From an uncultured Acidobacteriota bacterium (GTDB taxonomy: Bacteria; Acidobacteriota; UBA6911; RPQK01; JAPXNP01): a DNA stretch of 64,000 nucleotides. Under the pieces are notes generated by a model. That model saw only the letters and a program-made list of their open reading frames with translations, was not told the origin of the DNA and searched no databases. This document shows, piece by piece, positions 2,164 through 27,177 of this stretch. The stretch is from positions 64,001 through 128,000 of the forward strand of contig CAVZRV010000013.1 of NCBI GenBank assembly GCA_963777605.1. Direction: 5' to 3'. Made by a program: the position numbers and the translations under genes. How positions within the stretch are numbered: position 1 is the first letter of the stretch; the number at the start of each line of letters is the position of its first letter.

Positions 2164-4654
2164 ATGGCACGAGAGGGAACGCTTTTCTTCACCGATTCGG
2201 TCCGGCGGGCCGGTTATTCGCTGAGTAACCAGTTTGCCGAGCACATGGAGTTCTCGCTCGTCAAGACCCGGAAAACGGCGACCGAGTATGATTTCTACCA
2301 GGCGCTTTCACTGGCGGTGAAAGATCGTCTGATCCGCAAATGGCTGCGGACCCAGCACCACTACGTGGAGCAGGACTCCAAGCAGGTCTACTACCTTTCA
2401 CTCGAATTCCTGATGGGGCGGCTGCTCGGCAACACGCTGATCAACATGGAGTTTTACGATCAGTGCCGGGAGATTCTGCTCAAGGACGGCATCAACCTGG
2501 AAGAGATCATGGAACTCGAGTACGACATGGCCCTCGGCAACGGCGGGTTGGGTCGACTGGCGGCCTGCTACCTGGATTCGATGGCGACCATCGGGATTCC
2601 CGCCTGCGGCTATGGAATTCGCTATGAATACGGGATTTTTCGCCAGGAATTGCGCAACGGCTACCAGGTCGAGCAGCCCGACAACTGGCTCAGCTTTGGG
2701 AACCCCTGGGAAACGCTGCGGCGCGACATTACCTACCGGGTCCACTTTCACGGCCGTCTCGAGCCCCAGGGCGGGCCGGCCGGGTTGGCAACCCGATGGG
2801 TTGAGACCGAAGATGTCCTGGCGGTGGCCTACGACGTCCCGGTTCCGGGGTACCGGACCGAAACCGTGAACAACCTCCGGCTCTGGCAGGCCAAGTCAAC
2901 CAACGATTTCAGTTTCAGTGAGTTCGACCGGGGCAATTACCTGGCTGCCGTGGAAGACAAGAATCGCTCGGAGAACATTTCCAAGGTCCTCTATCCGAAT
3001 GACTCATCGGCCCAGGGAAAGATCCTGCGCCTGAAACAGGAATACTTTTTCGTTTCTGCTTCACTTCAGGATATTATTAGTAACTACCTGTTAAAAAAAG
3101 ATTCTTTTGATGATTTTCCGGAGAAGATTTTCATTCAGCTCAACGATACCCACCCGGTCATCGCGATCCCGGAGTTGATGCGGTTGCTCATCGATGAACA
3201 CGGGCTGGACTGGGACCGGGCCTGGTCCATTAGCCGGCGGTGCTTCGGGTACACCAACCACACTGTGGTTCCCGAGGCCCTGGAAGAGTGGCCGGTGGAG
3301 GTGCTGGAAAGCCTGGTTCCGCGTCACCTGCAGATCATCTACGAGATCAATTCCCGATTTTCTGGCTTCGGTACGCCGAAGTCGAGCGGCGAATGAACGG
3401 GAGATCGCCGAACTTTCGATCATTCGGGAGTTTCCCGAAAAGACGGTTCGCATGGCCAATCTGGCAGTCGTGACCAGCACTGCCGTCAACGGCGTGGCTT
3501 CGTTGCACACCGAGATCCTGAAAACCCGGATCTTCCCCCTTTTCGACCGTCTCTTCCCGGGGAAGATTCAGAGCATCACCAACGGGATCACTCCCCGGCG
3601 CTGGCTCAAGGTCGCCAACCCGTTTCTGTCCAGTCTGATCACCGAGACGATTGGCGACGGGTGGGTCACCAACCTGGAAGAACTGAGGAAGCTGGAGCCT
3701 TTTGCCGAGGACGAGGCCTTTCGGGAGGCCTGGGCGAATGTCAAGACGGCCCAAAAACTTCTCCTCAAGCGGGAGATCGAGCGAGAGTCGGATCTTCGGG
3801 TGAAAGTGGATTCACTGTTCGATTCCCAGGTGAAGCGGTTCCACCTGTACAAGCGCCAGTTGCTCAATGCCCTGCACATGATCACTCTGTACAACAGGAT
3901 TCGGCGGGACCCCGGGGAAAACCATCTGCCGCGCACGATTGTCGTGGGGGGCAAGGCGGCCCCGGCCTATGTCGAGGCCAAGCTGGTCATCAAGTTGATC
4001 AATTCCATCGCGGACGTGGTCAACCGGGATCCGGCGGTCAAAGGGTTGTTGCAGATCGTGTTCATGCCCAACTACTCGGTTGCGCTGGCCGAGAAGATCA
4101 TTCCTGCGACCGAGTTGTCGGAGCAGATTTCGACCGCAGGATACGAAGCTTCCGGTACGGGAAACATGAAGCTTGCGCTCAACGGGGCGCTCACCATCGG
4201 GACCTTGGACGGCGCGAACATTGAGATCATGGACGAAGTCGGCCGGGAGAACATGTTCATTTTCGGGCTCAACGCGGACGAAGTTGCCCGTCGCCACCAG
4301 GGAGGGTACCGGCCGCGCGATTTTTACGAGCAGGACGCTGAACTTCGTGAAGTCATCGACATGATTGAGGGCGGCTACTTCAATCCCGATGAGCCGGGTA
4401 TCTTCGGAATTCTCGTGCAGGAACTTCTTGAACGTGATTTCTTTTGTTTGCTGGCAGATTACTCGGCATATATTAAGGCTCAACTCGAAGTAGAATCGGT
4501 CTATCGCAATAGCCACGAGTGGACTCGCAGGTCAATTCTCAATGTCGCTCGAATCGGTCGATTCTCAAGTGACCGTTCGATCGCGGAGTACAACCGGCAG
4601 ATCTGGCGGGTGGAACCGGTCGCGATTTCCGAGGAGCGGTTCGGATCAATCTGA
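2164..4654 (+). CDS. glgP: Glycogen/starch phosphorylase, +1 frameshift in a T-run at ~3358-3361
   Basis: YYLSLEFLMGR, LGNGGLGRLAAC, QLNDTHP, YTNHT in ORF 2125-3396; NGITPRRW, EASGTGNMK (PLP lysine) and FSSDRSI in ORF 3194-4654. Confidence 0.95.
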
Positions 4655-11766: not shown

Positions 11767-13020
11767 TCACGGCTTCCAGGGGCTGATTTGCCCGCTTTCC
11801 ATCTCCACCATGGTTACCGGGCGCGTGTTTTGACCGGTCAGGTCCCAGACGATCGGTCCGGCCGCCCCGGACCAAGAGAATTTGGCCCGCAGCGTGTCTC
11901 CAATCCGGGCCCGGTTGGCACCGGCTTCTCGCACGGCTTCTCCCAGGAGTTCGATGGCGTCGTAGGTCTGGGCGGCAGCGAAGTCCGCGGGGTGTCCGGT
12001 TTCTGACCGGAAACGCTTCGAAAACTCTTCCAGGGCTCCAAGGTCGGCCGGGAGGGGGAATATGAAGCGGTTGGACAGCCCCGCCGCCGCTTCGTGGAAG
12101 GATCGGCGGCCCATCGCCGAAGAGCCGTAAACAGGTCCGGAATAGATCGGCGCCAGGTGGCGCGCAACCTGCGCCGAAACCTGCGGATCCGCCAGGATCA
12201 CCAGGGTGGGCCGGACCGAGCCGGCGAGGAGTTGACGATTGAGGTTGGAGAGTTCGGTCTCGTCGCCTGTGGTGACGTTCAGGTGGTAGTGAAGCGCGCT
12301 CTCCCGCTTCGAGAGCGCTTCGAGGAATTCAGTCGTCACGGCGCGGGAGTCATGGTCGGTGGCGGAGATCAGGACGATGGTGTCGGTATGGCCGTTCTTC
12401 TCCAGCGTTTCGAGGAGCAACTCCATCTGGAGGTCATCGCCCGGCAGGCAGGAAAAGATCCACGGAACGTGGGCCATGTTGGCCGACCGGTCGGTCGATC
12501 CCGGGTTGAGCAGGGGCAGGCGGGCTTTGGCGACGATCTGCTCGGCCAGGTGCGCGGTAGGCCCGTCTACGCCGCCGATGATGGCCTGGATTCCGTCGTT
12601 GTAAACCATCCGCGCGATCTGCCCGACACCGCTGCCCCAGGGATTCTCCGACCACGCGGGAAGGAGTCGGAAGGGCAGCCCCCGGTAGCCGCCTCGAGCG
12701 TTGAGGTCGTCGATGGCCATTTGGGCAGCGGTCCAGGAATCACCATACAGTGGGTGATCGGGATCGGACGGCCCGAAGTAACCGATGCGGATCTCCGTAA
12801 GGCCCGGCGGGTCGATGTCATCCCGCCCGGGGCCATTGTAGTGGTGCAGGCTTGTTCGGCCGTCGAAGAACGGGCCCTCGGCCTGTCCAGCCAGAGCCGG
12901 TCGAATCAGGCAGCACAGCCCGGCCAAAACAACCAGGGCTCGGCAAATCTGGAGCCGGCTCGCCTGCCAATCGGACGGAGGGTTCGATTGGCGAACCCTC
13001 CGGCACCGGTCAGCGGTCAA
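11767..13020 (-). CDS. Periplasmic binding protein, type 1 (LivJ/LIVBP-like), last gene of the HZS-like operon
   Basis: Signal-peptide-like stretch, IRIGYFGP, AIDDLNARGG, AIIGG, AAQTYDA, GAAGPIVWD. Start codon uncertain. Confidence 0.85.
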   Translation of the reverse strand: MTADRCRRVRQSNPPSDWQASRLQICRALVVLAGLCCLIRPALAGQAEGPFFDGRTSLHHYNGPGRDDIDPPGLTEIRIGYFGPSDPDHPLYGDSWTAAQMAIDDLNARGGYRGLPFRLLPAWSENPWGSGVGQIARMVYNDGIQAIIGGVDGPTAHLAEQIVAKARLPLLNPGSTDRSANMAHVPWIFSCLPGDDLQMELLLETLEKNGHTDTIVLISATDHDSRAVTTEFLEALSKRESALHYHLNVTTGDETELSNLNRQLLAGSVRPTLVILADPQVSAQVARHLAPIYSGPVYGSSAMGRRSFHEAAAGLSNRFIFPLPADLGALEEFSKRFRSETGHPADFAAAQTYDAIELLGEAVREAGANRARIGDTLRAKFSWSGAAGPIVWDLTGQNTRPVTMVEMESGQISPWKP

Positions 13021-13032
13021 TGGCAGGCCGCT

Positions 13033-14497
13033 TCACGGCTGACCCGGTCCCGTTCCGGGACGATATCCTTGGGGGATATCGAGGTCTTCCCGCGTGTAGT
13101 AGTGCCAGGCGCCGTCCTTGAAGTGCGCCATGGCGACCGTCCCGACGTCATCCAGTGCCGCACTGAGGGCGATCTGCCCCGTCACGCCCGGCCATGGCTT
13201 GGACCTGTAGGCCAGCACGTCACGAACTTTGGCCCGATTCAATCCCGCCACCTGGACGGCCCAGATCAGCATATTCATTCCGTCGTAGGCGTGAGCCGCG
13301 TAAGTGTCCGCCTCGACACCGAAGCGTCTCCGGAAGATCTCCCGAAAAGCGGACAGCTTGGGATCTTTCCGGTCCGGGTTCCAGGGGTACATTGCCCAGA
13401 CTCCCTCGGCGTTCTGGCCGGCTATCTCGGTGAAAGTCGGGCGAGACGTGCCGGTCGGAGCCGAAGAACGGTTGCTTCATCCCCATCTTCCGCATCTGGT
13501 TGAGAATCATGGCCCCTTCCTGGGCATCTCCCCAGTGGACGATGGCGTCCGGATTGGTCGCCTTGAGGCGTTCCAGTTGAAGCGAGAAATCGGTGTCCCC
13601 GAGACGGTAGGCCATCTCCAGAACGACCGGCTTCTCCAGGCGCCGGCTGCCGTCCCGAACCTCGCGCACACCGAAGCGGCCGTACCGGTTGGAAGCCCGG
13701 ATGATCCCCACCCGTTGGTAGCCCATTTTTCGGTACAGGTAGTCCACCAAAAGGTAACCCATCTGCCGGTCGTCCCCGATACAGCGGAACACCCACGGGA
13801 TGTTCGTCTCGATAAAGGTCGGGTCGGTGTCGCCGGAGTTCATCATGGCAACCTCGGCCTTCAGAGCGACCCGGATCGCGATGTGGCTGTTGGCGCCGTC
13901 AATCGTGCCGAGAATCGCCCAAACCTTGTCGTTGTAAGCCATTTTGATGATCTCGTTGCCCGAGGCTCCCCACAGCCCGTTGTCGTTGGAGACGGCCAGT
14001 TCGAATGGAACCGACCGTTTCAGGTAGCCTCCCCGGGCATTGGCCTGTTCGATGGCCAGTCGGCTGCCCCGCATCATCTGGATTCCCAGGGGCTCTTCGT
14101 GGCTCTTGCCGCCGGTAGCGACCGAAACGGTGGACATTATGGGACCGATGAATCCGATCTTGACCGAATCGACATGCTCGGGTTCGGGGATCGCGCGCCC
14201 GGGTCCGGTGTACTCGATCTGAAGGAGGAAGTTCTCCTTGAAGGGTTTGACCCCGCTGAACGGTTCGACGTCGACGGCGGTTCCGGCGTAGTTCTCGTCC
14301 CGCTTCAGGTCAATTGGAGGAGTTTCATAGGCAGTGATGTTGTTGAGGATTTCCAGGACCTTGGCCACGGCCGGATCATCCACCGCGAAAGGAGGCAGGA
14401 GTTCATCCGGGGGCAGAATGTCCGGTCGTTTTGTCGCCTGGGCAAAGAGCCCGGACACGGTCAGGATGACGAAGAATACTCTGCAGACCAGTTTCAT
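13033..14497 (-). CDS. Periplasmic binding protein, type 1 (LivJ/LIVBP-like), +1 frameshift at ~13432
   Basis: Signal peptide, VKIGFIGP, AIEQANARGG, DTDFSLQL; C-terminus (AAHAYDG, GVTGQI) is in ORF 13033-13392. Confidence 0.85.
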
Positions 14498-14503
14498 GGC
14501 TAG

Positions 14504-15754
14504 TTACCTCCTCGCACTCGCCGGCCGGGCAGGAGATGTCGCTGCGGTCGGGGTCGTGGCGGCTGCGTCGGAGCCCTCCGGTTTGAGCCCGGCAAAGTAG
14601 TTCGTTCCGATCCCGTGGGCCAGGCCTTTCGACGTTCCGATCCAGACATCAGAACCGTCGAAATCTACTGCAAGCGTGTAGTTGTGGGGAATTCCGGTGG
14701 CGGTCTCAACCTCCTTCAGTACCTGTTTGTTGCGGGATACGATCGCCTTTCCCTTGTGGGTTTCCGGGTCCATCGTATAGGTGACCCACGTATCGGTATC
14801 AAAGTCGGTCACGGTCCCCACGCCCTTGTCGGTACAGAACCAGGCCTCCTGGGCGCTCCGCCCTTTGACGGCATTGATGAAGTCACTGGGAAGCCCGGTT
14901 TCCTGGTTGTAATAACCGCGCCAGTGTCGTCCGTCGTAGCGGCATCCCCCGAAGTAGGTCGAAACCCAGAGGATCTTGTCCACGTAGCTGACTCCGGTCG
15001 TGATGACGTGGACAATCCCGTCATCGCGATAGAGGTCGATCTCCATCTCACCGTCCGGGTCGAGGTAGTCTTTCCAGGTCCCGCGCGCGATGTCGTATTC
15101 GAGTACACCGCTTCCCCAGACACCGAGGTAGACAAGGCCGTCGTTGTAGGTGACACCGTAGTTCCAGATCTCCTCCATGGGCGCATTCTTCTCTGTAAAA
15201 ATGGCCCATTCGCCGGTAACGGTGTTGAATCGGCTCGCACCCGCGGTAGTCGCACACCAGACATTGTCGTGCTCGACGGCGACCCCGTAGACGACGTCGT
15301 TGACCAGTCCGCTGTTCAACTGGTGCCAGTGATCGAACCGGCCGGCGGTATAGCGCGCCAGGCCGCCGCCGAACAGGGCCAGCCAGACCTCCCCGGTCTT
15401 TGGGTTGACGGCGATCCAGGAGACCACCTTCCAGGGGAGACCATCCTCCATCGTCCAGGTCCGCTTGACCTTGCCGGCGACCTTGTCGATGAGGGCCAGG
15501 CCGTTCTCCGTGCCGACCCAAACGTCGTTGCCGTTGACGGTGACGGCGAAAATGTGGTCGTTTGGCAGCCCATCCTTGACCGTGAACTGCTGCCAGTCCC
15601 GGTAGATGTACGGCAGCGGTTCCTGCTCAGCCGCGGGCGGAACCAGCGCGGATTCAGCGAACGGCAGGGCCGGGATCGTAAACAGTATCGCCAGGACTGT
15701 CAGCAGAAAACGCGGGCATTCCTTGATGCTGACTGGGAATGATTGTCTGCTCAT
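14504..15754 (-). CDS. Secreted beta-propeller protein (two-component regulator propeller / ligand-binding sensor repeats) with no kinase domain
   Basis: Repeats DGLPNDHI..VWVGTENGL, DGLPWKVV..VWL, SGLVNDVV..VWCAT, TGLPSDFI..AWFCT, GIPHNYT..VWIGTSKGL. Confidence 0.85.
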   Translation of the reverse strand: MSRQSFPVSIKECPRFLLTVLAILFTIPALPFAESALVPPAAEQEPLPYIYRDWQQFTVKDGLPNDHIFAVTVNGNDVWVGTENGLALIDKVAGKVKRTWTMEDGLPWKVVSWIAVNPKTGEVWLALFGGGLARYTAGRFDHWHQLNSGLVNDVVYGVAVEHDNVWCATTAGASRFNTVTGEWAIFTEKNAPMEEIWNYGVTYNDGLVYLGVWGSGVLEYDIARGTWKDYLDPDGEMEIDLYRDDGIVHVITTGVSYVDKILWVSTYFGGCRYDGRHWRGYYNQETGLPSDFINAVKGRSAQEAWFCTDKGVGTVTDFDTDTWVTYTMDPETHKGKAIVSRNKQVLKEVETATGIPHNYTLAVDFDGSDVWIGTSKGLAHGIGTNYFAGLKPEGSDAAATTPTAATSPARPASARR

Positions 15755-15782
15755 AATTGAGTCCTCACCGATTCTTCTCGGA

Positions 15783-18635
15783 TCAGAACGTCTTGATGTA
15801 CTCAATCAGATCGTTCAGTTGATCCTTGGTCAGATCGTTCGTCACCCCATGCTTATCCTGGGGGTTGTGCACGGTCCAGATCTCCTCCAGCGTGGGTGCG
15901 ATCCCGTTGTGAAGGTAAGGCGCTGAGTCATAGATGTTGTTCAGATGGGGAACGTCAAAGAGCGCTTCCCGATCATAGGGCATCCGGGTTCCGACATCCA
16001 CCTGGGTTCGGTTCGTGTAGAGCGGAGGTGGATGACAGAAGACACACTGTCCGGTCTTGGGAATTTCCCGGCCGTCGCTGGTCATCGATCGCTCGAAGAC
16101 GGACTTGCCTCGTCGCTGGGCGGGAGTGAGTTCGGCTCCCAGAGGACGATAGCGGTTTGGTGGCCGCTGAATCATGGAAATGTAGAGATCCAATGCGGCC
16201 AGTTCGTCCGGGCTAAAAGGCTGGATTCGGGTGAAGAAGACAGCCAGGCGGGGACCGCATTGCCGCTGCAGGCTTGGGTTGGTACCTTCCCACTTGAACG
16301 GGGCGGTGTCCAGAATCCCGCGAAGCGTCCGGTTGTCCACGGGGCTCACGCCCACTCCATCCGGTTCGATGTCGTAAGTGACTCCGTCAACGTGGCCGTC
16401 CGGGTGGCAGGAGTGGCAGGAGAATTGGCGTCGGAAGGTGATTTTGGCATTGTGAAAGAGCTGTTCTCCCAAGCGTGCCTTGGTGATCTGCCTGGGTCCG
16501 CCAAGGTCCACGACTCCAGCTGGCTCGAGTCGCTTCATGTCGATAACCGTGAGGGAATCGTCCAGGCAATTGGCGACGAAAGCAGTGCTGCCGTCCGGCG
16601 TCACCCGAATTCCCCGCGGGCTCTTCCCGGTCGGGATCAGCTTCGCAATGAACTCGGTGGGCAGGCCCAGGTGATTGGGCAGAACGTTCTTGCGCTCTTC
16701 ATCGGATGCCGACTTGAGGATGCCGACCAGTTTGTTGAGATCGACCACCGCCACCCGGTCGAGGCTCGCGCTGGTCACCAGGGCATACTTTCCGTCCGGC
16801 GTGATCGTCAGGCCGGTGGGGTCGGGAAACGAGATGTCGGTCTGGTCGAGCAAGACCTGGTCCACGTGCCCGTCCTTCCAGGCGATCCCGATGCCGTTGG
16901 TGATGGTCCAGCCCTGGGTCAGCCTGGTCATGGGCACCAGGTTCTTGGTTCGGAGCATTACGAAGACGGCGTATTCCCCGCTCGGATGCCAGTCTACGCC
17001 GAGCAGGAGGTTCGTTCCCCGGGCGGTGTAGCGGTCGTCCACCTTCTCGGTCTTGGTATTGACCACGGTCAGTTCCGAGACACAGGGAGTCCGGAAGGGG
17101 ATAAACCGGGACAGGGCATTGGTCACGACGATCTGGCTGCCGTCGGGAGACAGGGACATCGCCCAGGGATACCGGCTTGCCGTCAGCCGGGACTTCTCGG
17201 TCAGTGAATCGCCATCCAGGATCGAGATGCTGTCCTCAGAGGAGTTGAGAACGTAAACGTCCCGGCCCATGCCGTCCATCTGGACGCCGTGTGGTTCGTC
17301 GCCGACGGGTACGGTGCGCAACACCTTCCGCGTCACCACATCGATCTCGCTCAAGCTGTCGTCGAGCCGGTTGGTGACGAGGACCCTCTTCCCGTCTGGG
17401 CTGAACGTCAGGTCATTGGGCTGGCCTCCGACCTGAATCTCGGCCACCTTCTGGCGCCTGGCGACATCCACAACGATGACCGAATCAGAGGTTTCGCAGG
17501 TGAGCCAGACTTCACGGCCGTTTGGAGAGACAACCAGGTTAAGAGGGTTCTTGTAGCGGATTTGCGCCACCGGTGCAGGGCGCTTTTTCGGGTGGGCGAT
17601 CGATTTCCACGCTGCTTCGTAGTCGAAGGATTTTCCGTGGGCATCGGCATGGCACTCCATGCACATGTCGCGATTGCCCAGTTTGAGGCCAGCCTCGCGG
17701 GCCGCCTCCTTGTCCAGCATGATGGCTTCGTGCTGGTAGTCGCTGCCGGGTCCATGGCACGACTCGCAGCCGACTCCCTCATCCAGGGTAAGCGACGGGA
17801 GAGCCTCGGACAGTTTTCCTCCGGTGGTGGCATGGCAGCGCAGGCACTTGGGGCTCTGTTGGGCTGGACCTTCGATCCCGGCCTGGCGAGCAATACCCTG
17901 GGCCGCCTCAGTGGCGAGGCGCCCATAGGCCTTGGCGTGCGGAGACATCTTCCAAATGCTGAATTGGTAACCCATCATGGCCGCGCGGTGGCACTGGGTG
18001 CAGGCCTGCACGCCGACGTAGTGAGGACCAGGGGTCGTTTCGTCCGCCGTCCCGGACAGGGCGGGCAGTTCCGTGAGTTCCGCCGAGTCCGGCGTCGGGT
18101 GAGCAATCCTGTTCCAGCCCTCGTCGATGTCCAGCTTGGGCAGGTTGTGGACTGCGACGTGCGATCCCTTCTCGTTGTGGCACATCTTGCAGTCGTTCTT
18201 GGTGATCTTCTTCAGCCCGGCCCGCATCGCGGCTGCGGGATCGCTCATGACCTCGGCGTCCATGTACTCGCTTCCGGGACCGTGACACTTTTCGCACTGG
18301 ACCCCGTCCTCGATGCGGAACCCGTCGTCATGTTCCCAGTCTTCGGCTTCCGCCCCGGTGGCATGGCATCCGAGACACACCGGTGACTCCTGCGGAACCT
18401 GGGGCACTCCGCTGAGGCGGGCAATTTCCAGGGCCTCCGACTTGGCCAGGACCGCGTAGGCCCGGCTGTGCTTGGTCATCAGCCACTTGCTGAACTGGTG
18501 GCCCATGGAAGGCCCGTCATGGCAGGTAGCGCAGGCCCGTGCCCCGACGTAGATGGGCTGGCGTTGCTGAGCCGCAGCGGAAACCAGAAGGCAGCTCATG
18601 CTCAGCAGGAATGGCAGCAGGGATTTGGAACGCAT
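15783..18635 (-). CDS. Decaheme fusion: tandem cytochrome c554-like domains + YVTN beta-propeller (hydrazine synthase beta-like) + diheme cytochrome c peroxidase-fold domain (hydrazine synthase gamma-like)
   Basis: Signal peptide MRSKSLLPF. Ten CxxCH: CATCH, CLGCH, CEKCH, CKMCH, CTQCH, CLRCH, CESCH, CMECH, CHSCH, CVFCH. Propeller repeats (VGGQP..FSPDGK). CCP-type motifs TAPFKWEG and VPHLNNIYDSAPYLHNG. Confidence 0.9.
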   Translation of the reverse strand: MRSKSLLPFLLSMSCLLVSAAAQQRQPIYVGARACATCHDGPSMGHQFSKWLMTKHSRAYAVLAKSEALEIARLSGVPQVPQESPVCLGCHATGAEAEDWEHDDGFRIEDGVQCEKCHGPGSEYMDAEVMSDPAAAMRAGLKKITKNDCKMCHNEKGSHVAVHNLPKLDIDEGWNRIAHPTPDSAELTELPALSGTADETTPGPHYVGVQACTQCHRAAMMGYQFSIWKMSPHAKAYGRLATEAAQGIARQAGIEGPAQQSPKCLRCHATTGGKLSEALPSLTLDEGVGCESCHGPGSDYQHEAIMLDKEAAREAGLKLGNRDMCMECHADAHGKSFDYEAAWKSIAHPKKRPAPVAQIRYKNPLNLVVSPNGREVWLTCETSDSVIVVDVARRQKVAEIQVGGQPNDLTFSPDGKRVLVTNRLDDSLSEIDVVTRKVLRTVPVGDEPHGVQMDGMGRDVYVLNSSEDSISILDGDSLTEKSRLTASRYPWAMSLSPDGSQIVVTNALSRFIPFRTPCVSELTVVNTKTEKVDDRYTARGTNLLLGVDWHPSGEYAVFVMLRTKNLVPMTRLTQGWTITNGIGIAWKDGHVDQVLLDQTDISFPDPTGLTITPDGKYALVTSASLDRVAVVDLNKLVGILKSASDEERKNVLPNHLGLPTEFIAKLIPTGKSPRGIRVTPDGSTAFVANCLDDSLTVIDMKRLEPAGVVDLGGPRQITKARLGEQLFHNAKITFRRQFSCHSCHPDGHVDGVTYDIEPDGVGVSPVDNRTLRGILDTAPFKWEGTNPSLQRQCGPRLAVFFTRIQPFSPDELAALDLYISMIQRPPNRYRPLGAELTPAQRRGKSVFERSMTSDGREIPKTGQCVFCHPPPLYTNRTQVDVGTRMPYDREALFDVPHLNNIYDSAPYLHNGIAPTLEEIWTVHNPQDKHGVTNDLTKDQLNDLIEYIKTF

Positions 18636-18651: not shown

Positions 18652-20289
18652 TCAGTTGGCGCCTTGAATGATTTTGAGAACCTGGTTGGCCGGGACATTC
18701 TCGAGTTTCTGGGTCTCTCCTCCCGGCCATCGAATCTCAATTGAGTCCACCTTCTGCGCTTTTCCCAGTCCGAAGTGGAGCCGGGAATCGACCTCTGAGA
18801 GGTATCCCCGGACGGGTTGAACGTTTTCGATTTGTCGCAGCGAATCAACCTGGACGGTGACCCGCGCGCCCAGAGCATCCCGCTCGGGGCCGGGGAGCTT
18901 CGGGACGACCTTAATCCAGTTGTTCTCGTTGCCACCGTCGTTGCGCAGCAACTTGGCGCGATCGTTCAGGTTGACGATCACCAAGTCGAGATCCCCGTCG
19001 TTGTCAAAATCGCCGAAGGTGGATCCCCGTCCAACCATTTTTACCCTGAAATAGTCTCCGGAGCGGTCGGAAACATCGTTGAAAACACCGGTGCCGTCGT
19101 TGTGAAGCAGCACATCCTCCTCGGTGTACTCGTGGTGAGCGTTGCCGTTGGAGACAAAGAGGTCGAGGTAGCCGTCATTGTCGTAGTCCACCAGGAGACC
19201 GCCCCAGCCGGTGTACTGACCGCAGGTGATGGCGACCTTGGAGCGGGTGGTCTGGTCTTCGAAGAACTCTCCCTGGTTCATTAGGAGACTGCTGTAGCCC
19301 ATGTCGGGGACGTAGATGTCCAGCAGTTGATTGCGGTCGATATCGCCCGGAAAGGGGCCCATCGAGGAAACGCCCTGTCCATGTTCGCCGAACGCCAAAC
19401 CCAGGAAGAGTCCCTTTTCGACGAAGGTCCCCTTTCCGGTGTTCTCGAAGTAGTAGTTTTCGGTGGCATCGTTGGCGACGTAGATGTCCATGTAGCCATC
19501 GCCGTTGAGATCGGCGGCGGTGGCACTCATGGCACGCCCGTTGTCCTTGAATACGCCTGCCTCACGGGCGACGTTAGTGAACGTGCCGTCGCCGTTGTTC
19601 CGATAGAGCGCATCGCTCTCGGCGCTGTAGCTCAGGGGGCCAGGGTAGCCGGCCGCGGCGTAGTAGGCCCGGAACTTTCCGTCATCGTAACGCAGGTAGT
19701 TGGCCACGTAGACGTCGAGGTCACCGTCATTGTCGTAATCGAGCCAGGGAGCGGAAAGGCTCCAGTTGGGGTCGGCCAGGCCCGCCTCTTTCGCAACGTC
19801 GGTAAACGTGCCGTCGCCGTTGTTCCGGTAGAGGACGTTCGAGCCGTAGTTCAAAACGTAGATGTCCACGTCCCCGTCGGCGTCGAAATCGACGGCGGAG
19901 CAGCCGAAGCTGGGACTTGGATCGCCAACCCCTGCCGAGTCGGTGACATCGGTGAAGGTGCCGTCCCCGTTGTTTCGGTAGAGATGGTTGAAGAGCTTTC
20001 CGCGCAGCTTCCGGCCACGGTTGTCGCTGATGGATTTGTCCCAGGAACCGTTCGGGAAGTAGAGGTCGAACCAGCCGTCGTTGTTGTAGTCGAGGAAGCA
20101 TGCCCCGGCACCGGTCCCCTCAACGATGTTGGTCAGGTCGAAATCGCCGAAGCTGTGTTTGAAGTCAATTCCCGCAGAGTCGGTGACGTCCACAAAAACC
20201 GGCAGGTTCGCCGGGTTCTGGGCCTGTCCCAGCGATCCGGCAATCGCCAGCGCGAACAAGAATAGGCATGGTCGGCGAAAGCACCTCAT
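18652..20289 (-). CDS. CRTAC1 family protein (FG-GAP/VCBS repeats + ASPIC/UnbV C-terminal domain)
   Basis: Multiple DxDxDGxxD Ca-binding repeats with LYRNNGDGTFTDV; C-terminal ALGARVTV..GYLS..RLHFGLG..IEIRWPGG. Confidence 0.92.
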   Translation of the reverse strand: MRCFRRPCLFLFALAIAGSLGQAQNPANLPVFVDVTDSAGIDFKHSFGDFDLTNIVEGTGAGACFLDYNNDGWFDLYFPNGSWDKSISDNRGRKLRGKLFNHLYRNNGDGTFTDVTDSAGVGDPSPSFGCSAVDFDADGDVDIYVLNYGSNVLYRNNGDGTFTDVAKEAGLADPNWSLSAPWLDYDNDGDLDVYVANYLRYDDGKFRAYYAAAGYPGPLSYSAESDALYRNNGDGTFTNVAREAGVFKDNGRAMSATAADLNGDGYMDIYVANDATENYYFENTGKGTFVEKGLFLGLAFGEHGQGVSSMGPFPGDIDRNQLLDIYVPDMGYSSLLMNQGEFFEDQTTRSKVAITCGQYTGWGGLLVDYDNDGYLDLFVSNGNAHHEYTEEDVLLHNDGTGVFNDVSDRSGDYFRVKMVGRGSTFGDFDNDGDLDLVIVNLNDRAKLLRNDGGNENNWIKVVPKLPGPERDALGARVTVQVDSLRQIENVQPVRGYLSEVDSRLHFGLGKAQKVDSIEIRWPGGETQKLENVPANQVLKIIQGAN

Positions 20290-22205
20290 TCATCCCCTCC
20301 TGAAAGTCTCTTCTGCTCCATCTCAACTGCGTTCTGCACCCGGGATCCGCCATGAGCACCCAGATCGATCCACTCAATCATCACCTGGGCGTGTGCCGGT
20401 TGCACCAGCGGTTTCCCCATATTGGGCGGGCCCTCGTTCTGATTCGGCACTGTCCCGTCCCAGGGAAGAGTAGTGATTTTGCCCAGGATGTGCCAGACCA
20501 GGGGACTGGTTCGGGCCCGGCCCGGGTCGATCCAGCGTTTTTCCCCGCCTTCCGAACCCGGGTTTCCGCCATTCAATCGCGCGTAAATTCTTGCGACATA
20601 CCCACTGGAATCCGTCCGGCCGTCGGGAGGACGGAAGTCCGCCCCCGAAGTTCCCCCGGAATGGCATGACTCGGTCGTGCATCCCTTCTGGATAACCGGA
20701 AGGACATCCCGCTGGAAATCGACATAGCGGCGCAGGTGGGCGGGCGCGGTCAGCCGGACGGGAGGCTTCTTCACCGCATCGACAAACCGGTTGTCCGGGA
20801 CCAGTTCTCCGTCTTCGTGGCAGCCGATGCATCCACGAGGTTCCTTGTTCCTGGCCCAGATCCAGCCGCAACTCTTGAGGGACATCCCCTTGTCGTCAAT
20901 GAGTTGCAGCTGGACCGGCGTGTTGGCCGGCACCTCGAAGAAGACGGAGCCGTCGGCTTCCAGGGGAACCTCACCGAGGATACGTTTGGGAATCATCGAA
21001 TCCCTGGATTCGGAATGAGCCGGCAGGCCCTCGAGGACGCGCACGCGCCTGGCGAGGGACTGCAGTTGTGTCCCATTCTTCAGATCGTTGATGCCGACGT
21101 TGAGGCAGTAGAACTGCCCGAAGGGATGGTTCTCGTTGACCACGCTGGAGCGGCCGTCGGGTTGGGGGCGAGCTTTGACTAGGCGCCCGTAAAGCAGGTT
21201 GCTGGATGAACTGGACAGCCAGGGCGTGAAGGTCCCGCTTTCCGGGTCCAGTTTCACGACTTCGAAACGTGAAGAGCCGGCCGAGGCTTTCCGGGAAACC
21301 AGGATCGAACCGTCCGGAAGCGGGGCGGGGGAGTAGAAAATCCCCTCTGCCGGCCCGGTGAGTCTTCGATAGGTGTGCATCGGGCGCCGAAGCGAGACCG
21401 AGCCCAGGGTTCCCCCGATGGCCCCCGCGTCGAGAGCCGATTCGACGAACACGGCCAGGTCATGGGTCGTCACCGTGGGCATTTGCTGGACCGGCGATCC
21501 CTGCAAGCCGGAAAAGGCGACCAGGTCGGTGCCGTCAACGTTCATGTTGAAGATCCGGGTCTGGCCGGCATCGCTTGCAGCAGTCCCGGCCCGCCGGCTC
21601 GAGAAGAGGATGCGACCGTCCCAACAAAGGAAGGGATCTTCGTCGGAGGACGGGTTATAGGTGATCCGCTTGATCTCGCTCCCGTCGAGTTGGCAGGAAT
21701 AAAGGTTGAGGGCTTTGCCGGTGCCCCGCTCGTTGTACTCACCTGCCGCGTCACTGACAAAGAGGATCTGAAGCCACGGCTCGTTCGCCGTGATGATGTA
21801 GTAGGCTGACAGGTAGATCGGAGAGCGACAGTTTCCGGAGTCGCGGGTGACCTGCCGGGTCTTTCCCGAATCAATCTCGTACTCGAAAATGTTCCAGGGT
21901 TCGCCGGCTGAGGGCCTTCCGGAAAAAAGGATCCGCTTCCCGTCGTAGGAGACGTCAGGTTCGCAGGCGCTCTCGAAACCCTTGCTGACGGCAACCGTTC
22001 GGCCGTCCGGATAGCGCAGTACTAAGCGGGCCCCGTCACAGACCTCGGAACGCTGAACTTTTGCCGGGGAGACGGAAGGCGGAAGCGCTCGTGCTTCCAC
22101 CAGGACGGTTGGTTCGGGGGGGGCGGGGGATTGCGCCCAGACCAACCCCGACACTCCGAAAACGATGAGAGAGAAAGAGAGGAGACCTCGCATTTCACGA
22201 GTCAT
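20286..22205 (-). CDS. Hydrazine synthase alpha subunit-like protein (TolB-like propeller + HZS-alpha middle domain + c-type heme domain)
   Basis: PDVSYDGKRILFS propeller; RILGEVPLEADGSVFFEVPANTPVQLQLID middle-domain signature; CIGCH; VDFQRDVLPVIQKG-CTTESCH. Its stop overlaps the next start (ATGA). Confidence 0.85.
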   Translation of the reverse strand: MTREMRGLLSFSLIVFGVSGLVWAQSPAPPEPTVLVEARALPPSVSPAKVQRSEVCDGARLVLRYPDGRTVAVSKGFESACEPDVSYDGKRILFSGRPSAGEPWNIFEYEIDSGKTRQVTRDSGNCRSPIYLSAYYIITANEPWLQILFVSDAAGEYNERGTGKALNLYSCQLDGSEIKRITYNPSSDEDPFLCWDGRILFSSRRAGTAASDAGQTRIFNMNVDGTDLVAFSGLQGSPVQQMPTVTTHDLAVFVESALDAGAIGGTLGSVSLRRPMHTYRRLTGPAEGIFYSPAPLPDGSILVSRKASAGSSRFEVVKLDPESGTFTPWLSSSSSNLLYGRLVKARPQPDGRSSVVNENHPFGQFYCLNVGINDLKNGTQLQSLARRVRVLEGLPAHSESRDSMIPKRILGEVPLEADGSVFFEVPANTPVQLQLIDDKGMSLKSCGWIWARNKEPRGCIGCHEDGELVPDNRFVDAVKKPPVRLTAPAHLRRYVDFQRDVLPVIQKGCTTESCHSGGTSGADFRPPDGRTDSSGYVARIYARLNGGNPGSEGGEKRWIDPGRARTSPLVWHILGKITTLPWDGTVPNQNEGPPNMGKPLVQPAHAQVMIEWIDLGAHGGSRVQNAVEMEQKRLSGGDE

Positions 22206-22311
22206 ACAACAAATCCTGAATAGACTCGACCCGCCGCGTGCTCGTTGGCCATGAGAGTGAGGCACTCGGGCCGAATGACAGTGTCTCGGTCTCGGAATCG
22301 CAGAAGACGAA

Positions 22312-22899
22312 CTACTCTTCCCGCTTCAGCATCGCAATGGCCTCGATCTCGACAAGCAGATCCTCACGGCAAAGCCTGGCCTGGATTCCGACACTCGCCG
22401 GCAGAGGGCTCAGTTCGAGGTAATTGAAGAAGGCGTTTCGGACCCGGTTGAATTCTTCGTAATCGCGCTCGATATCACGCAGATAGCAGGTGCATTTCAC
22501 GATATCGCGCCAGGTTGCCCCCTGGGCGGTGAGCAGTTCGGTGATATTCCGGTAGGTACGCCAGCACTGGGCGCGAAAATTGCCTTTGTGGACCGTGTCT
22601 CCTTTTTCGTCGACACTGGCGGTTCCCGAAATGAAAATCAGGTCGTGGTTGCCCATCTCGATGCGAAGGCCGCGCGAGAAGGCCGAACCGTAGTCATACG
22701 CTTCGTTCAGGACGGTGGAGGCGGAGACCGCCTGCCGTGTGACGGACGTGAACCCCGGTTGGTGTGCGACCTCGAGCAACGGTCGAACTGAGCCAGAAGA
22801 AGAGAGCAGGCCGAGAGCGACCAATTCCTGTCTTTCACCTTTAGTCAGGTTGCCAAATCCCGCCAGAATGTCGTCGCGCACGCTCACCAATGTGCTCAT
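22312..22899 (-). CDS. Rid (YjgF/YER057c/UK114) family protein, FkbO/Hyg5 chorismatase-like subtype
   Basis: SAFSRG, IFISGTAS, LCREDLLVEIEA; first gene of the operon, no signal peptide. Confidence 0.8.
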   Translation of the reverse strand: MSTLVSVRDDILAGFGNLTKGERQELVALGLLSSSGSVRPLLEVAHQPGFTSVTRQAVSASTVLNEAYDYGSAFSRGLRIEMGNHDLIFISGTASVDEKGDTVHKGNFRAQCWRTYRNITELLTAQGATWRDIVKCTCYLRDIERDYEEFNRVRNAFFNYLELSPLPASVGIQARLCREDLLVEIEAIAMLKREE

Positions 22900-23384
22900 T
22901 TACCGGTCCCTCCCAATCAGCATGTTTAAGAAGTACAGAATTCACCCACGGCTTCAGAACAGCAAGATCAGTGCCAGCATTCCAACTTTCTGAACGGAGC
23001 CCTCTAAGCCCTGAAAAAGAAATAGTTTATATAAAAAGTACGGTTTGCCGGGCCGCGCCTCGTGGAAAGCCTGTTCATAGATTCTATGGGCACCGGGATA
23101 CAAGCCGGCACCCTGGACCGGTCGGGCCCGCGGCAACAGGGAGCCGACTAACTTGTGGCGAATGAGTAGATTAGCCTTGAAGCCCTGAAGAAGGGCGGCT
23201 CCCGCATATACATGAGATGTAATTCGTACAATATGTGTTAACTCAAGATCTACATCGCGCGTTGGGGATTTGGTTTTCGGTCGCCGGCCCGAACCATCGG
23301 TGTTATGATGCTCTCCTGCCGCCCGGCGGGACCATTTTGACTTGAGCCCGACCACGTCCTTTCATATGATCTAACCTGCGGATC

Positions 23385-23400
23385 TTTGATTACTTTCAAA
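23385..23400. promoter_or_regulatory. Putative CRP/FNR-family binding site
   Basis: TTTGATtactTTCAAA matches TTGAT-N4-ATCAA at 9/10. A -10-like TATACG is at 23421-23426, followed by an AGGAGG RBS and ATG at 23449. Confidence 0.45.
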
Positions 23401-23448
23401 CGGTCTTTGGGAATCTACCGTATACGGAAAAAGACTAGGAGGATTTGA

Positions 23449-24078
23449 ATGCCCAAAGAGAAGAAGCCTGAGATGAGCAGCTCCGGCCTGTCCCGAAGAG
23501 ACTTCTTCAGAAGCGGCACCGTGGCCGGCATGTCGGCGGCACTGGTTTCGCAGAAGTCAGGGCTGGCCAAGAGTGAGGCGGGAACCCAGATTCTGGGCCC
23601 GGACCCGGTGCCAATCAGACTGATCGTCAATGGAAAGCAGCTCAATCTCAAGGTCGAGCCGCGGGTCACCCTGCTGGACGCATTGCGCAACGACCTGGGA
23701 ATAACCGGTGCAAAGAAGGTTTGTGACCGTGGAACGTGTGGTGCGTGCACGGTACTTCTTGACGGAAAGCCGGTTTACTCCTGCTCGGTGTTCGCGATCG
23801 AAGCGCAGGGAAAAGACATCGTCACCGTTGAGGGCCTCGGCACTCCCGACAAGATGCACCCGATACAGGAGGCGTTCGTGGATCACGACGCCCAGCAGTG
23901 CGGGTTCTGTACTTCGGGATTCGTGGTTGCCAGCAAGGCATTTCTGGACAAGAACCCGAATCCGAGCCTGGAGGATATCAACAAGGGTTTGGGCGGTAAC
24001 CTGTGCCGTTGCGGAACCTACGCCGGAATCCGCGGTGCAATCCTGCAGGCGGCTGGGAAAGGAGGAGACAATGCCTGA
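23449..24078 (+). CDS. Xanthine dehydrogenase/aldehyde oxidoreductase family 2Fe-2S subunit with Tat signal (PaoA/YagT-like)
   Basis: SRRDFF twin-arginine motif; GAKKVCDRGTCGACTV; QCGFC; NLCRCG. Confidence 0.93.
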   Translation: MPKEKKPEMSSSGLSRRDFFRSGTVAGMSAALVSQKSGLAKSEAGTQILGPDPVPIRLIVNGKQLNLKVEPRVTLLDALRNDLGITGAKKVCDRGTCGACTVLLDGKPVYSCSVFAIEAQGKDIVTVEGLGTPDKMHPIQEAFVDHDAQQCGFCTSGFVVASKAFLDKNPNPSLEDINKGLGGNLCRCGTYAGIRGAILQAAGKGGDNA

Positions 24079-26197
24079 TTATAAGTGGCCAGAAGCCGAT
24101 CAACGATGGCGAATCGGCCGCAACGTGTCCCGCGTGGACGGCCCCTCCAAGTCGACCGGATCGGCCGAGTACGCCTATGATGTCCGGCTCTACGGAATGC
24201 TCACCGCGAAAATGCTGACCTGCCCTTACGCTCACGCGCGGATTGTCAGCATCGACAGTTCCGCGGCCGAGAAGTTGCCGGGTGTCAAGGCTGTCAACGT
24301 GATCCAGGGGCCGGGAACGGAAATCCAGTGGGCGGGTGACGAAATCATATCAGTCGCCGCCGAGACCGAGGAGATCGCCCGGGATGCCCTCAAGCTGATC
24401 GACGTCAAATACGAGGTCCTTCCTCACCAGTTGGACGGTGAGAAGAAAGACGCCCCGGACGCCTCGGCGGCCCAGGAACAGGTGGCGGGCGATCCCGACC
24501 AGGGCATGACGAGTGCCGACAAGGTTTCGGAGGGGTACTACGGACTCGAATTGATCTCTCACTGCTGCCATGAATCGCACGGGACCGTGGCCTACTGGGA
24601 GGACGATGACCATCTCGTGGCTTATGCCTCGACCCAGGGAGTGAGCGTTCTGCCGGGTCAGTTCGCTGAAGGCCTGGGTATTCCCGCCGCCAATGCGCGC
24701 GTGATCTGTCAGAACATGGGCGGCGGATTCGGGAGTAAGTTCAGTGCCGACCGTTGGGGCATCGAGTGCGCCAAGCTCGCGCGAATGACCAAGCGGCCGG
24801 TCAAGCTCATGCTCGACCGGGATACGGACCTCCAGGTCGCCGGCGGGCGTCCATCTACATATGCCAGGATCAAGATTGGCGTGAAATCGACCGGCGAGAT
24901 CACGGCCTGGGCCTCCGAAACGTGGGGGACCGGTGGACCGAGCGGGACCAATAGTCCTCCGGTACCGTACGTGGTCGAAGTTCCCAACCGGCGGCACCAG
25001 CATACATCGGTCCCGACCAACACTGGTCCGTCCAGAGCCTGGCGGGCACCCAATCATCCCCAGGCCTGCCTGGTGACGATGGCGGCGATCGAGGATGCCG
25101 CGGCAGCGATCGGGATGGATCCGGTTGACTTCATCATGAAGAACATCCAGATGACCGAACCCCGGTCTCGGGAGTACACGGAAGAACTGCAGATCGGTGC
25201 CGAATTGATGGGCTGGAAGGAGCGCTGGAAGCCACGGGGACAGGGTGGCGACGGACCGGTCAAGCGCGGTCTGGGCGTTTCCCTGCATACTTGGGGCGGG
25301 CGCGGTCACAACAGCAACTGCGAGTTGCTGCTTCATCCCGACAGTTCCGTCGAGATCCGCCTGGGAAGCCAGGACCTCGGGACGGGAACCCGGACCGTCA
25401 TCGCGCTGGTTTGCGCGGACACCTTCGGCCTGGAAGCGAGCGACATCACCGTTCGTATTGGAGACAGTCGTTTTCCGGCTTCTGGCGCTTCCGGTGGAAG
25501 CACCACGGTCGGAGGCGTCAGTTCTACCGCACGGAGGGCGTCTCTGCTGGCTCTCGAGCAGTTGCTGACCCGGGTCGCACCGGAGTTGAACGCCCAGCCA
25601 GGCGAGTTGGAAGCGATCAATGGTCGAATCCAGGTCAAGGATTTTCCGGATCGCTACCTGACCTGGAAAGAAGCAACGTCGATGCTGGGTGTCTCGCCCA
25701 TCAGTGTTACGGGTCAGAATCCCGGCCCCGGGCGCCTGATCGACGGTGGCGTTGGCGGCATCCAGATGGCTGACGTTTCGGTCGATGTGGAAACCGGAAT
25801 CCTCAAGATCAACAAGATGGTCGCTGTCCAGGACTGCGGCCTCATCATCAACATGAAGACGGCCAAGAGCCAGGTTTACGGCGCCCTCATCATGGGAATT
25901 TCCTATTCCCTGGCCGAAGAGCGGATCATGGATCCGACGACCGGCTGGCTTCTCAACGATGACATGGAGTTCTACAAGCTGCCCGGCGTTGGAGACATCG
26001 GCGAGCTGGTCGTTCACATGATGACGGGACCGGGATACGACGAACGCGGCGTGATCGGCCTCGGTGAACCTCCGGTGATTTCTCCGGGGGCGGCGATCTC
26101 CAATGCCGTGGCCAATGCGATCGGAGTCCGGGTGCCTTACCTGCCCCTGACCTCCGATCGGATTCTCCAGGCTCTGGAGAAAGGAGGAGCAGCCTGA
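24071..26197 (+). CDS. Xanthine dehydrogenase family molybdopterin-binding subunit (PaoC/YagR-like)
   Basis: GGAGGAG RBS; RVDGPSKSTG; MGGGFGSK; AWRAP; QDLGTG; SGGSTT; catalytic GLGEPP. Confidence 0.93.
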   Translation: MPDYKWPEADQRWRIGRNVSRVDGPSKSTGSAEYAYDVRLYGMLTAKMLTCPYAHARIVSIDSSAAEKLPGVKAVNVIQGPGTEIQWAGDEIISVAAETEEIARDALKLIDVKYEVLPHQLDGEKKDAPDASAAQEQVAGDPDQGMTSADKVSEGYYGLELISHCCHESHGTVAYWEDDDHLVAYASTQGVSVLPGQFAEGLGIPAANARVICQNMGGGFGSKFSADRWGIECAKLARMTKRPVKLMLDRDTDLQVAGGRPSTYARIKIGVKSTGEITAWASETWGTGGPSGTNSPPVPYVVEVPNRRHQHTSVPTNTGPSRAWRAPNHPQACLVTMAAIEDAAAAIGMDPVDFIMKNIQMTEPRSREYTEELQIGAELMGWKERWKPRGQGGDGPVKRGLGVSLHTWGGRGHNSNCELLLHPDSSVEIRLGSQDLGTGTRTVIALVCADTFGLEASDITVRIGDSRFPASGASGGSTTVGGVSSTARRASLLALEQLLTRVAPELNAQPGELEAINGRIQVKDFPDRYLTWKEATSMLGVSPISVTGQNPGPGRLIDGGVGGIQMADVSVDVETGILKINKMVAVQDCGLIINMKTAKSQVYGALIMGISYSLAEERIMDPTTGWLLNDDMEFYKLPGVGDIGELVVHMMTGPGYDERGVIGLGEPPVISPGAAISNAVANAIGVRVPYLPLTSDRILQALEKGGAA

Positions 26198-27177
26198 TGA
26201 ACAAGTTCGAATATGCGAGTCCAAACACAGTCGAAAGCGCCATTCAGCTCCTCGGACCGGAAGCGGCCGTTCTGGCCGGCGGCAGTGACCTGCTGAGCCT
26301 GATGAAGGACGGGGGTGCCGCTCCCAAGCGGCTCGTCAGCATCAAGGCCATTCCGGACCTCTGCGGGATCACCGACCTCGGCAACAAGGGAATCCGCATC
26401 GGAGCCCTGGTGACGATTGACGAGTTCGTGGAACATCCCCTGATCCAGGCCAATTATCCGGCCCTGATTCAGGCCGCCGACGGTATCCGGAGCCACCAGA
26501 TTCAAAGCCTGGGAACCGTCGTGGGTGACCTCTGCCAGCGTCCCCGTTGCTGGTATTTCAGGACCGGCTTCGGTCTTCTCGCCATGAAAGACGGCAAGTC
26601 AATGGTCCTGGACGGCGATAACCGGTATCACGCGATTCTCGGGAATTCCGGGCCGGCCTACTTTGTTAGTCCTTCAACCATCGGCCCTGGGCTGATCGCT
26701 TTGGGGGCGCAGGTCGCCATTCAGGGACCCAAGGGAAGCCGGCAGACTCCGGTCGCCGATTTCTTCCGGATCCCGACTGCAGAAGGGGAGTTGGAACACG
26801 ACCTGGCTCCCGACGAAATCGTAACCGAGATCGTGATTCCTCCGGCTGCCGGCAAAAAGTCGGCAACCTATGAAGTCCGCCAGAAGGAAGCCCTGGACTG
26901 GCCGCTGACGGCCGCCGCAGTTGCTCTCGAAATGGACGGAGACACGGTCAAGGCAGCCAAAGTGGTCCTCGGACACGTGGCGCCCAAGCCCTGGGTAGCG
27001 GACGCTGCAGCTGCGGCCCTCGTTGGCAAATCGGTCAGCGAGGCGACTGCGGCCGCTGCGGGAAAGGCCGCTGTTCAGGGAGCCAAGGCACTGAGCAAGA
27101 ATGGCTACAAGATCAATCTTACTCAGGTGACCGTCAAGCGCGCTGTGCTTCGAGCGGCCGGCAAGGAGGTAGCCTAA
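26197..27177 (+). CDS. Xanthine dehydrogenase family FAD-binding subunit (PaoB/YagS-like)
   Basis: LAGGSDL; IRIGALVT; CQRPRCWYFR; LGHVAPKPW; NGYK. Confidence 0.92.
   Translation: MNKFEYASPNTVESAIQLLGPEAAVLAGGSDLLSLMKDGGAAPKRLVSIKAIPDLCGITDLGNKGIRIGALVTIDEFVEHPLIQANYPALIQAADGIRSHQIQSLGTVVGDLCQRPRCWYFRTGFGLLAMKDGKSMVLDGDNRYHAILGNSGPAYFVSPSTIGPGLIALGAQVAIQGPKGSRQTPVADFFRIPTAEGELEHDLAPDEIVTEIVIPPAAGKKSATYEVRQKEALDWPLTAAAVALEMDGDTVKAAKVVLGHVAPKPWVADAAAAALVGKSVSEATAAAAGKAAVQGAKALSKNGYKINLTQVTVKRAVLRAAGKEVA

Follow-up and report, generated by a model that had tools for sequence, protein, structure and literature searches.

Hydrazine synthase (HZS) was, to our knowledge, long regarded as an enzyme without relatives, and a gene of an uncultured Acidobacteriota bacterium whose product resembles two of its subunits raises the question of how far this resemblance goes and what the product may do. 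The gene is placed in a stretch of 64,000 nucleotides (contig CAVZRV010000013.1, positions 64,001 to 128,000 of the forward strand), here called the window. It occupies positions 15783..18635 on the minus strand and encodes a protein of 950 amino acids, followed by a stop codon, with a signal-like N-terminus, two tetraheme domains of the cytochrome c554 type, a HZS-beta-like propeller and a HZS-gamma-like diheme domain; we refer to it as the decaheme gene. Its product is a relative of hydrazine synthase and is not a hydrazine synthase, and it is a homologue of the clade I type of Hagglund et al. (Genome Biol Evol, December 2025; PMC12758564), as far as that clade is described there. We consider it on balance probable that the protein serves as electron relay and first catalytic subunit of a periplasmic, HZS-like multi-protein heme enzyme.

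The open reading frame (ORF) is single and uninterrupted, with its stop end at 15783. Its longest form begins with a GTG at 18935, but this form would overlap the upstream gene (stop at 18652), and a ribosome-binding-like GGGAGAG precedes the ATG at 18635, 16 nt away from that stop. For these two reasons the ATG was taken as the likely start. The N-terminus, judged by eye, is a hydrophobic signal-like segment. The protein contains ten CxxCH motifs (residues 35, 87, 114, 149, 212, 264, 290, 325, 740 and 864), all of which are invariant in the 43 full-length homologues that were aligned and on which the conservation counts are based. The coordinates and the motif layout given for this gene in the initial annotation are correct.

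The first eight motifs belong to two domains of four motifs each, domain 1 at 18066..18563 (minus strand, approximately residues 25-190, with the best Pfam PF13435 stretch at residues 34-119) and domain 2 at 17571..18038 (minus strand, approximately residues 200-355), which is a duplicate of the first. Pfam Cytochrome_C554 (PF13435) matched the protein in two stretches with 108.3 bits against a cut-off of 20.8, and in a sequence search of the PDB domain 2 matched cytochrome c554 (1bvb) with E = 1e-8 over residues 206-349. When residues 25-195 were aligned with residues 196-355 by BLASTP, 41% identity was obtained over 154 columns (E = 2e-37), so that the internal duplication is real. The layout YVG..CxxCH..H.xAY..CxxCH..GV.CExCHGPGS.Y..CxxCH, which occurs twice and had been read in the initial annotation as a tandem duplication of a c554-like tetraheme domain, is borne out on both counts. 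Cytochrome c554 of Nitrosomonas europaea (PDB 1bvb/1ft5) is the electron acceptor of hydroxylamine oxidoreductase (HAO). The domains described here share with it the Pfam family, the four motifs per domain and the direct sequence match, whereas in the decaheme protein the domain forms a tandem pair that is covalently linked to an enzyme module. Equivalog-level identity with the Nitrosomonas protein failed, the score against NCBIfam NF043010 being 56.7 bits with a cut-off of 400. Among the 45 neighbouring ORFs of the window that were scanned against Pfam there was no HAO gene.

The tetraheme part is followed by a seven-bladed YVTN-type beta-propeller (16521..17558, minus strand, approximately residues 360-705), with a helical insertion at residues 633-662 as in HZS beta, and by a diheme domain of the HZS-gamma/CCP/MauG type (15786..16520, minus strand, approximately residues 706-950). 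In the PDB sequence search the propeller matched HZS beta of Kuenenia stuttgartiensis (5c2v_B) with E = 3e-37 from residue 363 to 698, that is, end to end and with the helical insertion of a late blade included. The diheme domain matched HZS gamma (5c2v_C) with E = 8e-19, while its matches to cytochrome c peroxidases (CCP) were at approximately 1e-5 or weaker. Pfam recognised a YNCE/lactonase-type propeller and, at the C-terminus, CCP_MauG (PF03150) barely above its cut-off (26.6 against 25.6 bits) and, weakly, a RoxA-like cytochrome c; matches to amine dehydrogenase propellers were weak as well. The two heme motifs of the diheme domain are C740/C743/H744, which is gamma-I-like and accompanied by an extra Cys793, and C864/C867/H868, which is gamma-II-like. 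Trp782 is situated between the two hemes, and the conserved H909 and H929 align in 5c2v_C with two His of HZS gamma near heme gamma-II.

The fold agrees with these matches. An AlphaFold2 single-chain model, built with an alignment of 77 sequences, reached a mean pLDDT of 87.3 and a pTM of 0.85, and its best fold match in the PDB by Foldseek was again 5c2v_B (target-normalised TM 0.91, root-mean-square deviation 3.2 Å, 24% identity). A seven-bladed propeller with an insertion in blade 6, joined to a diheme gamma domain with two CxxCH (740 and 864), is the layout of HZS beta-gamma. The arrangement of four domains proposed in the initial annotation, with propeller and diheme domain at the C-terminal side, was thus recovered by the domain-architecture searches (Pfam and NCBIfam) and by the PDB searches of sequence and fold.

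The decaheme gene is the third of six genes that are tightly packed on one strand, in the order HZS-alpha-like, CRTAC1-like, decaheme, propeller and two substrate-binding proteins (SBP1 and SBP2). The HZS-alpha-like gene (20286..22265, minus strand) is an ORF of 659 amino acids, with a likely start at an internal Met before a signal-like segment, and encodes a PD40 propeller and the HZS_alpha middle domain (Pfam PF18582, E = 5e-21), the latter containing a CIGCH motif. Its product matched HZS alpha (5c2v_A) with E = 1.8e-34 in four stretches, among them those with the motifs of heme alpha-I (CIGCH aligned with CSGCH) and heme alpha-II. At its second, C-terminal heme site (residues 529-535) the window protein reads CX4CH (CTTESCH); 35 of 50 aligned homologues lack the two middle residues, and their motif is CxxCH. 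The CRTAC1-like gene with FG-GAP/UnbV_ASPIC domains (18652..20289, minus strand) separates the alpha-like gene from the decaheme gene, and at its start it overlaps the alpha-like stop by 4 nt. Directly downstream of the decaheme gene a Reg_prop-type beta-propeller gene is found (14504..15805 as ORF bounds, minus strand, likely internal ATG near 15754, Pfam PF07494), followed by the genes of SBP1 (13033..14497, minus strand, frameshifted in the window) and SBP2 (11767..13020, minus strand), both binding proteins being of the Peripla_BP_6, Leu/Ile/Val-binding type.

The cassette is widely kept. When the window proteins were compared by tblastn with 80 loci (L001-L080), counting only loci whose contig has room, the alpha-like gene was present in 62 of 63, the CRTAC1-like gene in 65 of 68, the Reg_prop-type propeller gene in 70 of 71, the SBP1 gene in 64 of 66 and the SBP2 gene in 57 of 59; the full six-gene set occurs in 61 of the 80. 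Two of the three loci scored as lacking the CRTAC1-like gene (L057 and L073) do carry it, the distance rule having failed there as the decaheme match was split. Across phyla the identity is 55-73% for the decaheme protein, 58-81% for the Reg_prop-type propeller and 58-82% for SBP1, which is among the most conserved proteins of the cassette, and it is lower for the alpha-like protein (38-57%) and SBP2 (25-55%). In two loci (L004 and L008) most of the cassette is missing around the decaheme gene despite room on the contig; the gene may at times occur by itself, or a rearrangement may have affected these regions.

Nevertheless, likeness to HZS does not extend to membership. The decaheme protein scored 202.3 bits against the NCBIfam model of the beta-gamma fusion (NF052342, cut-off 1250), 157.6 bits against that of HZS beta (NF052340, cut-off 560) and 80.4 bits against that of HZS gamma (NF052341, cut-off 625), and the alpha-like protein scored 149 bits against the hydrazine_alpha model (cut-off 800). 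The residues tell the same. We mapped the HZS residue numbers used in PMC12758564 and PMC12607021, as they appear there, through the 5c2v_C alignment, with a chain offset of 39 that fits C102/C105/H106. In all 43 homologues the position of gamma-Cys165 is Cys (Cys793) and that of gamma-Glu122 is Asp (Asp759), while gamma-His144 is replaced by Trp782 and gamma-Asp168 by Arg796, the last in a column that adjoins a gap. According to the discussion in PMC12607021 (JBC 2025), gamma-Asp168 is the proposed proton supplier of HZS, heme gamma-I is the candidate site of nitric oxide (NO) reduction and heme gamma-II is surface exposed. In HZS alpha, as described, Tyr591 is the proximal ligand of heme alpha-I and the motif His is bound to zinc. 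The 50 aligned alpha-like proteins have CxxCH followed by E-D-G/P-E and no Tyr at the position of Tyr591, the only Tyr conserved in at least 95% of them being Y151; the match to 5c2v_A stops at the heme alpha-I motif and approximately 50 residues are missing after it. Scores so far under the cut-offs, together with Trp782, Arg796 and an alpha-like protein without Tyr591, make the protein a relative of hydrazine synthase and not a member of the family. The module had been called HZS beta-gamma-like in the initial annotation; the likeness stands, with the PDB matches and the fold behind it, and membership does not.

Seen beside the Kuenenia enzyme, whose beta and gamma subunits (5c2v chains B and C) are fused in Scalindua, the decaheme protein shares the propeller with helical insertion, the diheme gamma fold, both gamma CxxCH motifs, the Cys at gamma-Cys165, the two His near heme gamma-II and an alpha-type gene in the operon. 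It differs in that approximately a quarter of the residues are identical and the family scores fall far short, in its eight extra fused hemes, in Trp for gamma-His144 and Arg for gamma-Asp168, and in the gene order, which is reversed here (alpha first) and includes additional cassette genes. Moreover, in HZS the electrons come from a separate donor protein, as stated in PMC12607021.

Hagglund et al. sorted co-localised HZS homologues into four clades. In their description, clade I has an alpha-like gene upstream, a CRTAC1-family gene between, a fused beta-gamma homologue with eight extra N-terminal heme motifs that form two c554 domains, and two genes of ABC-type binding proteins downstream. 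The residues listed for this clade are Cys at gamma-Cys165, Trp for gamma-His144, a two-residue gap at alpha-Ser590/Tyr591 and the loss of the beta-loop Glu, and the members named include Aquisphaera giovannonii, Thermogutta terrifontis, Novipirellula artificiosorum, Syntrophobacter fumaroxidans as well as Paludibaculum fermentans. The gene order of alpha-like, CRTAC1-family, fused beta-gamma and two binding proteins is found in the window and is kept in the loci that we fetched, and the decaheme protein has the eight N-terminal motifs in two c554 domains, the Cys at gamma-Cys165 and the Trp at gamma-His144, with an alpha-like partner that lacks Tyr591. Nothing of substance sets the window copy apart; it has the CX4CH form of the second alpha-like motif and a frameshifted SBP1. 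The decaheme protein is a clade I homologue, assigned by gene order, heme motifs and residues, and the fusion is already described in print (PMC12758564), the window gene being a new member of a described family. The conclusion of that paper is that clade I are not hydrazine synthases, and its account of the clade proposes no function. For Phycisphaerae, hzsA-like genes upstream of fused hzsBC-like genes have been reported in a passage that suggests a wider family of enzymes acting on different substrates (PMC10732223).

Relatives of the decaheme protein are numerous. A word-indexed search of protein clusters gave 1456 relatives among 8000 scored candidates, and the best 120 of these 1456 clusters are almost all of approximately 950 amino acids, with 61-73% identity. 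Where the clusters carry a name it is only "YVTN family beta-propeller protein", "beta-propeller fold lactonase family protein" or "multiheme c-type cytochrome". In a pattern scan of contigs from one genome per species, 254 of 260 stretches encode a relative, a recurrence that, with the uniform length of the best clusters, answers the test of a misassembled junction named beforehand in the initial annotation: the junction is genuine. By genome label, 25 of the 80 kept loci are of Acidobacteriota type and 50 of Planctomycetota type (Pirellulales, Phycisphaerae, Sedimentisphaerales and Thermoguttaceae); the other five are one Anaerolineales, one Verrucomicrobia, two labelled Arcobacter and one unclassified. 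The three closest loci (73%, 73% and 72% identity) come from Acidobacteriota metagenome-assembled genomes (MAGs) and also have flanking genes in common with the window. The two loci in Arcobacter-labelled MAGs (L061 and L072) have cassette coordinates and identities almost equal to those of the Acidobacteriota/Bryobacteraceae loci L066, L077 and L079, and they are probably mis-binned contigs rather than a sign of transfer into Campylobacterota.

An exhaustive search of representative proteins gave 44,953 matches at E <= 1e-3 and 1,249 at E <= 1e-30, and here the beta-gamma core mostly stands alone, with approximately 600-680 amino acids. We scanned ten proteins from this search against Pfam and found several different attachments to the same core: a single c554 domain at the N-terminus (P0126 and P0133), a C-terminal c554 domain (P0129), a class-I cytochrome c at the N-terminus (P0244), a HZS_alpha domain fused ahead of the core to give an alpha-beta-gamma protein of 1300 amino acids (P0203), and a BlaR1-type M56 membrane domain (P0256). 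The independent attachment of cytochrome modules at either end is what would be expected if the beta-gamma core needs an electron partner at its surface heme. The initial annotation had proposed a Rosetta-stone fusion that links c554-type carriers to the HZS-like catalytic heme. This link is supported by the independent fusions (P0126, P0129 and P0244), but as a discovery it is not new, given the description of clade I (PMC12758564). The further statement that anammox HZS uses a separate multiheme donor agrees with the separate protein named "putative electron donor of HZS" in PMC12607021.

With these elements we are inclined to suggest how the protein may work. The architecture of a relay joined to a HZS-like complex is the well-supported part of the explanation, and to regard the c554 part as a built-in wire is plausible by analogy; the direction of electron flow and a multi-electron reaction we infer, and for the substrate as for that direction our proposals are guesses. 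The eight N-terminal hemes would form a built-in relay that connects the gamma-II-like heme (C864) with an outside partner, located in the periplasm or the membrane. From the C864 heme electrons might pass through Trp782, in the arrangement of CCP and MauG, to the gamma-I-like heme (C740/H744), which, to judge from the sequence, is probably cross-linked to Cys793 as in HZS. At this heme a small N-O species, most likely NO or hydroxylamine, would undergo a multi-electron reduction, and the product would be handed on to the alpha-like subunit with its canonical, His-ligated heme. A second small substrate would probably be delivered or sensed by the two binding proteins. A complex prediction with the protein divided into two halves (residues 24-355 and 356-950) was graded as "weak support", with a median of 0.60 (0.66, 0.60 and 0.54) and a best value of 0.00 in three controls; the runs agree in at least 98% of contacts and the partner pLDDT is at least 83. 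The mark used is reached by 116 of 157 solved complexes and by 2 of 215 mismatched pairs, and scores of 0.60 or less on it belong to 18 of the 157 solved complexes and to both mismatches that passed. As the two halves are covalently joined in nature, this prediction adds little.

Several points weigh against this proposal. In nitrifiers cytochrome c554 takes up electrons released by an oxidising enzyme, and the direction of the wire could therefore be outward. As to the substrate, the alpha heme looks canonical, with Glu and not Tyr four residues past the CxxCH His, and the pocket of the gamma-I-like heme is changed by invariant Trp and Arg; since the residues tied to HZS chemistry (gamma-His144, gamma-Asp168 and alpha-Tyr591) are replaced, the chemistry of NO to hydroxylamine is not simply transferable. 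A Pfam scan of the neighbouring ORFs identified neither a quinol dehydrogenase nor any other redox partner in the cassette, and a search of the literature gave no functional or biochemical study of any family member. Furthermore, the SBP1 gene is frameshifted in the window, the intact homologue of L001 matching positions 14383-13376 in one frame and 13440-13057 in the next; this interruption is either a sequencing indel or a pseudogene.

Two alternatives have to be weighed first. The protein could be a peroxide-reducing enzyme, a diheme module of the CCP type with its own eight-heme supply, whose likeness to HZS would reflect shared ancestry. The CCP_MauG and RoxA-like matches in Pfam and the CCP chains among the PDB matches, at E of approximately 1e-5, point in this direction, as does the invariant Trp782 between the hemes, at the position of HZS His144, which is given in PMC12758564 as equivalent to the catalytic Trp of CCP and MauG. 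However, beyond the diheme fold and this Trp the resemblance to the CCP/MauG family (PF03150) is limited: the sequence match is far weaker than that to HZS gamma, the extra Cys793 near the active heme aligns with the Cys of the third heme link specific to HZS, and the diheme part is joined to a propeller and eight further hemes within a HZS-type operon. Nor would a peroxidase require the conserved company of a heme partner of the alpha type, a CRTAC1-like protein, another propeller and a pair of binding proteins. We consider a peroxidase unlikely.

The same degree of doubt applies to an oxidising enzyme, in which an amine, an amino-acid-like compound or hydroxylamine would be oxidised at the diheme and alpha-like sites and the electrons would exit through the c554-type domains. 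This would suit the c554 fold, given the service of c554 to HAO, and the MauG-like Trp782; it would also suit two binding proteins of the Leu/Ile/Val-binding type, one of them (SBP1) among the best conserved proteins of the cassette, and the RidA-family gene located beside the cassette, both here and in some of the loci. On the other hand, the cassette shows neither a quinone-cofactor subunit nor a small subunit of amine dehydrogenase, amine dehydrogenase propellers are matched weakly, and the fold is silent on the direction of electron flow.

Improbable, but still to be mentioned, is a reading of the cassette as a new and widespread nitrogen-cycle enzyme in the periplasm of bacteria other than anammox bacteria, in which the octaheme wire feeds the gamma-type heme, NO or nitrite is converted there to a bound intermediate at the level of hydroxylamine, and the alpha-like heme couples this intermediate to an amine or reduces it further. 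The binding proteins would then deliver the amine, and the enzyme would perform two-site channelled chemistry of the HZS type with a substrate other than ammonium, for instance the formation of an N-N or N-C bond.

A genuine, divergent hydrazine synthase would imply a cryptic capacity of the anammox type, as proposed for divergent HzsA genes in ten phyla, which were interpreted as anammox potential in the part of PMC11828985 that treats them. Homologues of all three HZS subunits in one operon and the conserved equivalent of gamma-Cys165 speak for it. Against it stand all four NCBIfam scores (202 against 1250, 158 against 560, 80 against 625 and 149 against 800), the replacement of gamma-His144 and gamma-Asp168, the alpha-like protein without Tyr591 and without some 50 residues after heme alpha-I, and the lack of a multiheme gene of the HAO or hydrazine dehydrogenase (HDH) octaheme type among the 45 neighbouring ORFs of the 64-kb window scanned against Pfam; the account of clade I in PMC12758564 is likewise negative for the family. 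We regard a hydrazine synthase as very improbable. That the four-domain protein is an artefact of assembly or gene calling that joins unrelated genes is effectively excluded, in spite of indel-type frameshifts in at least three other genes of the window, since the decaheme frame is uninterrupted and the same architecture and length recur in the best 120 clusters and in 254 loci from independent assemblies.

Besides SBP1, two further genes of the window are split. A glycogen/carbohydrate phosphorylase gene (2125-4654, plus strand) is divided into two overlapping ORFs that cover profile positions 4-296 and 295-713, and an amidase gene (34897-36541, plus strand) is divided likewise into two overlapping ORFs. 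Several frameshifts of the indel type in one window suggest errors of assembly rather than decay, and the decaheme ORF is intact. In the region 22312-27177 a RidA-family gene with an N-terminal extension adjoins the cassette, and past this gene, on the opposite strand, genes for molybdopterin and FAD subunits of the xanthine-dehydrogenase family are placed, an arrangement common to the closest Acidobacteriota loci (70-78% identity). RidA is met again close to the cassette in some of the other loci.

The present finding adds little beyond what is in print, and its value is confirmatory: an intact member of the family, checks at the level of residues, and several different cytochrome modules fused to the same core. 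HzsA-like genes have been counted as anammox markers (PMC11828985), a use contested in the discussion of PMC12758564. Relatives of HZS are now known to be common in Acidobacteriota and Planctomycetota of soil and sediment, and the family still poses a real question of function. The conservation of the cassette across phyla, as seen in the decaheme protein (55-73%) and SBP1 (58-82%), points to an important and specific periplasmic reaction. Once known, this reaction would guard against the scoring of clade I-type genes as anammox markers in metagenomes, and it would show what hydrazine synthase evolved from.

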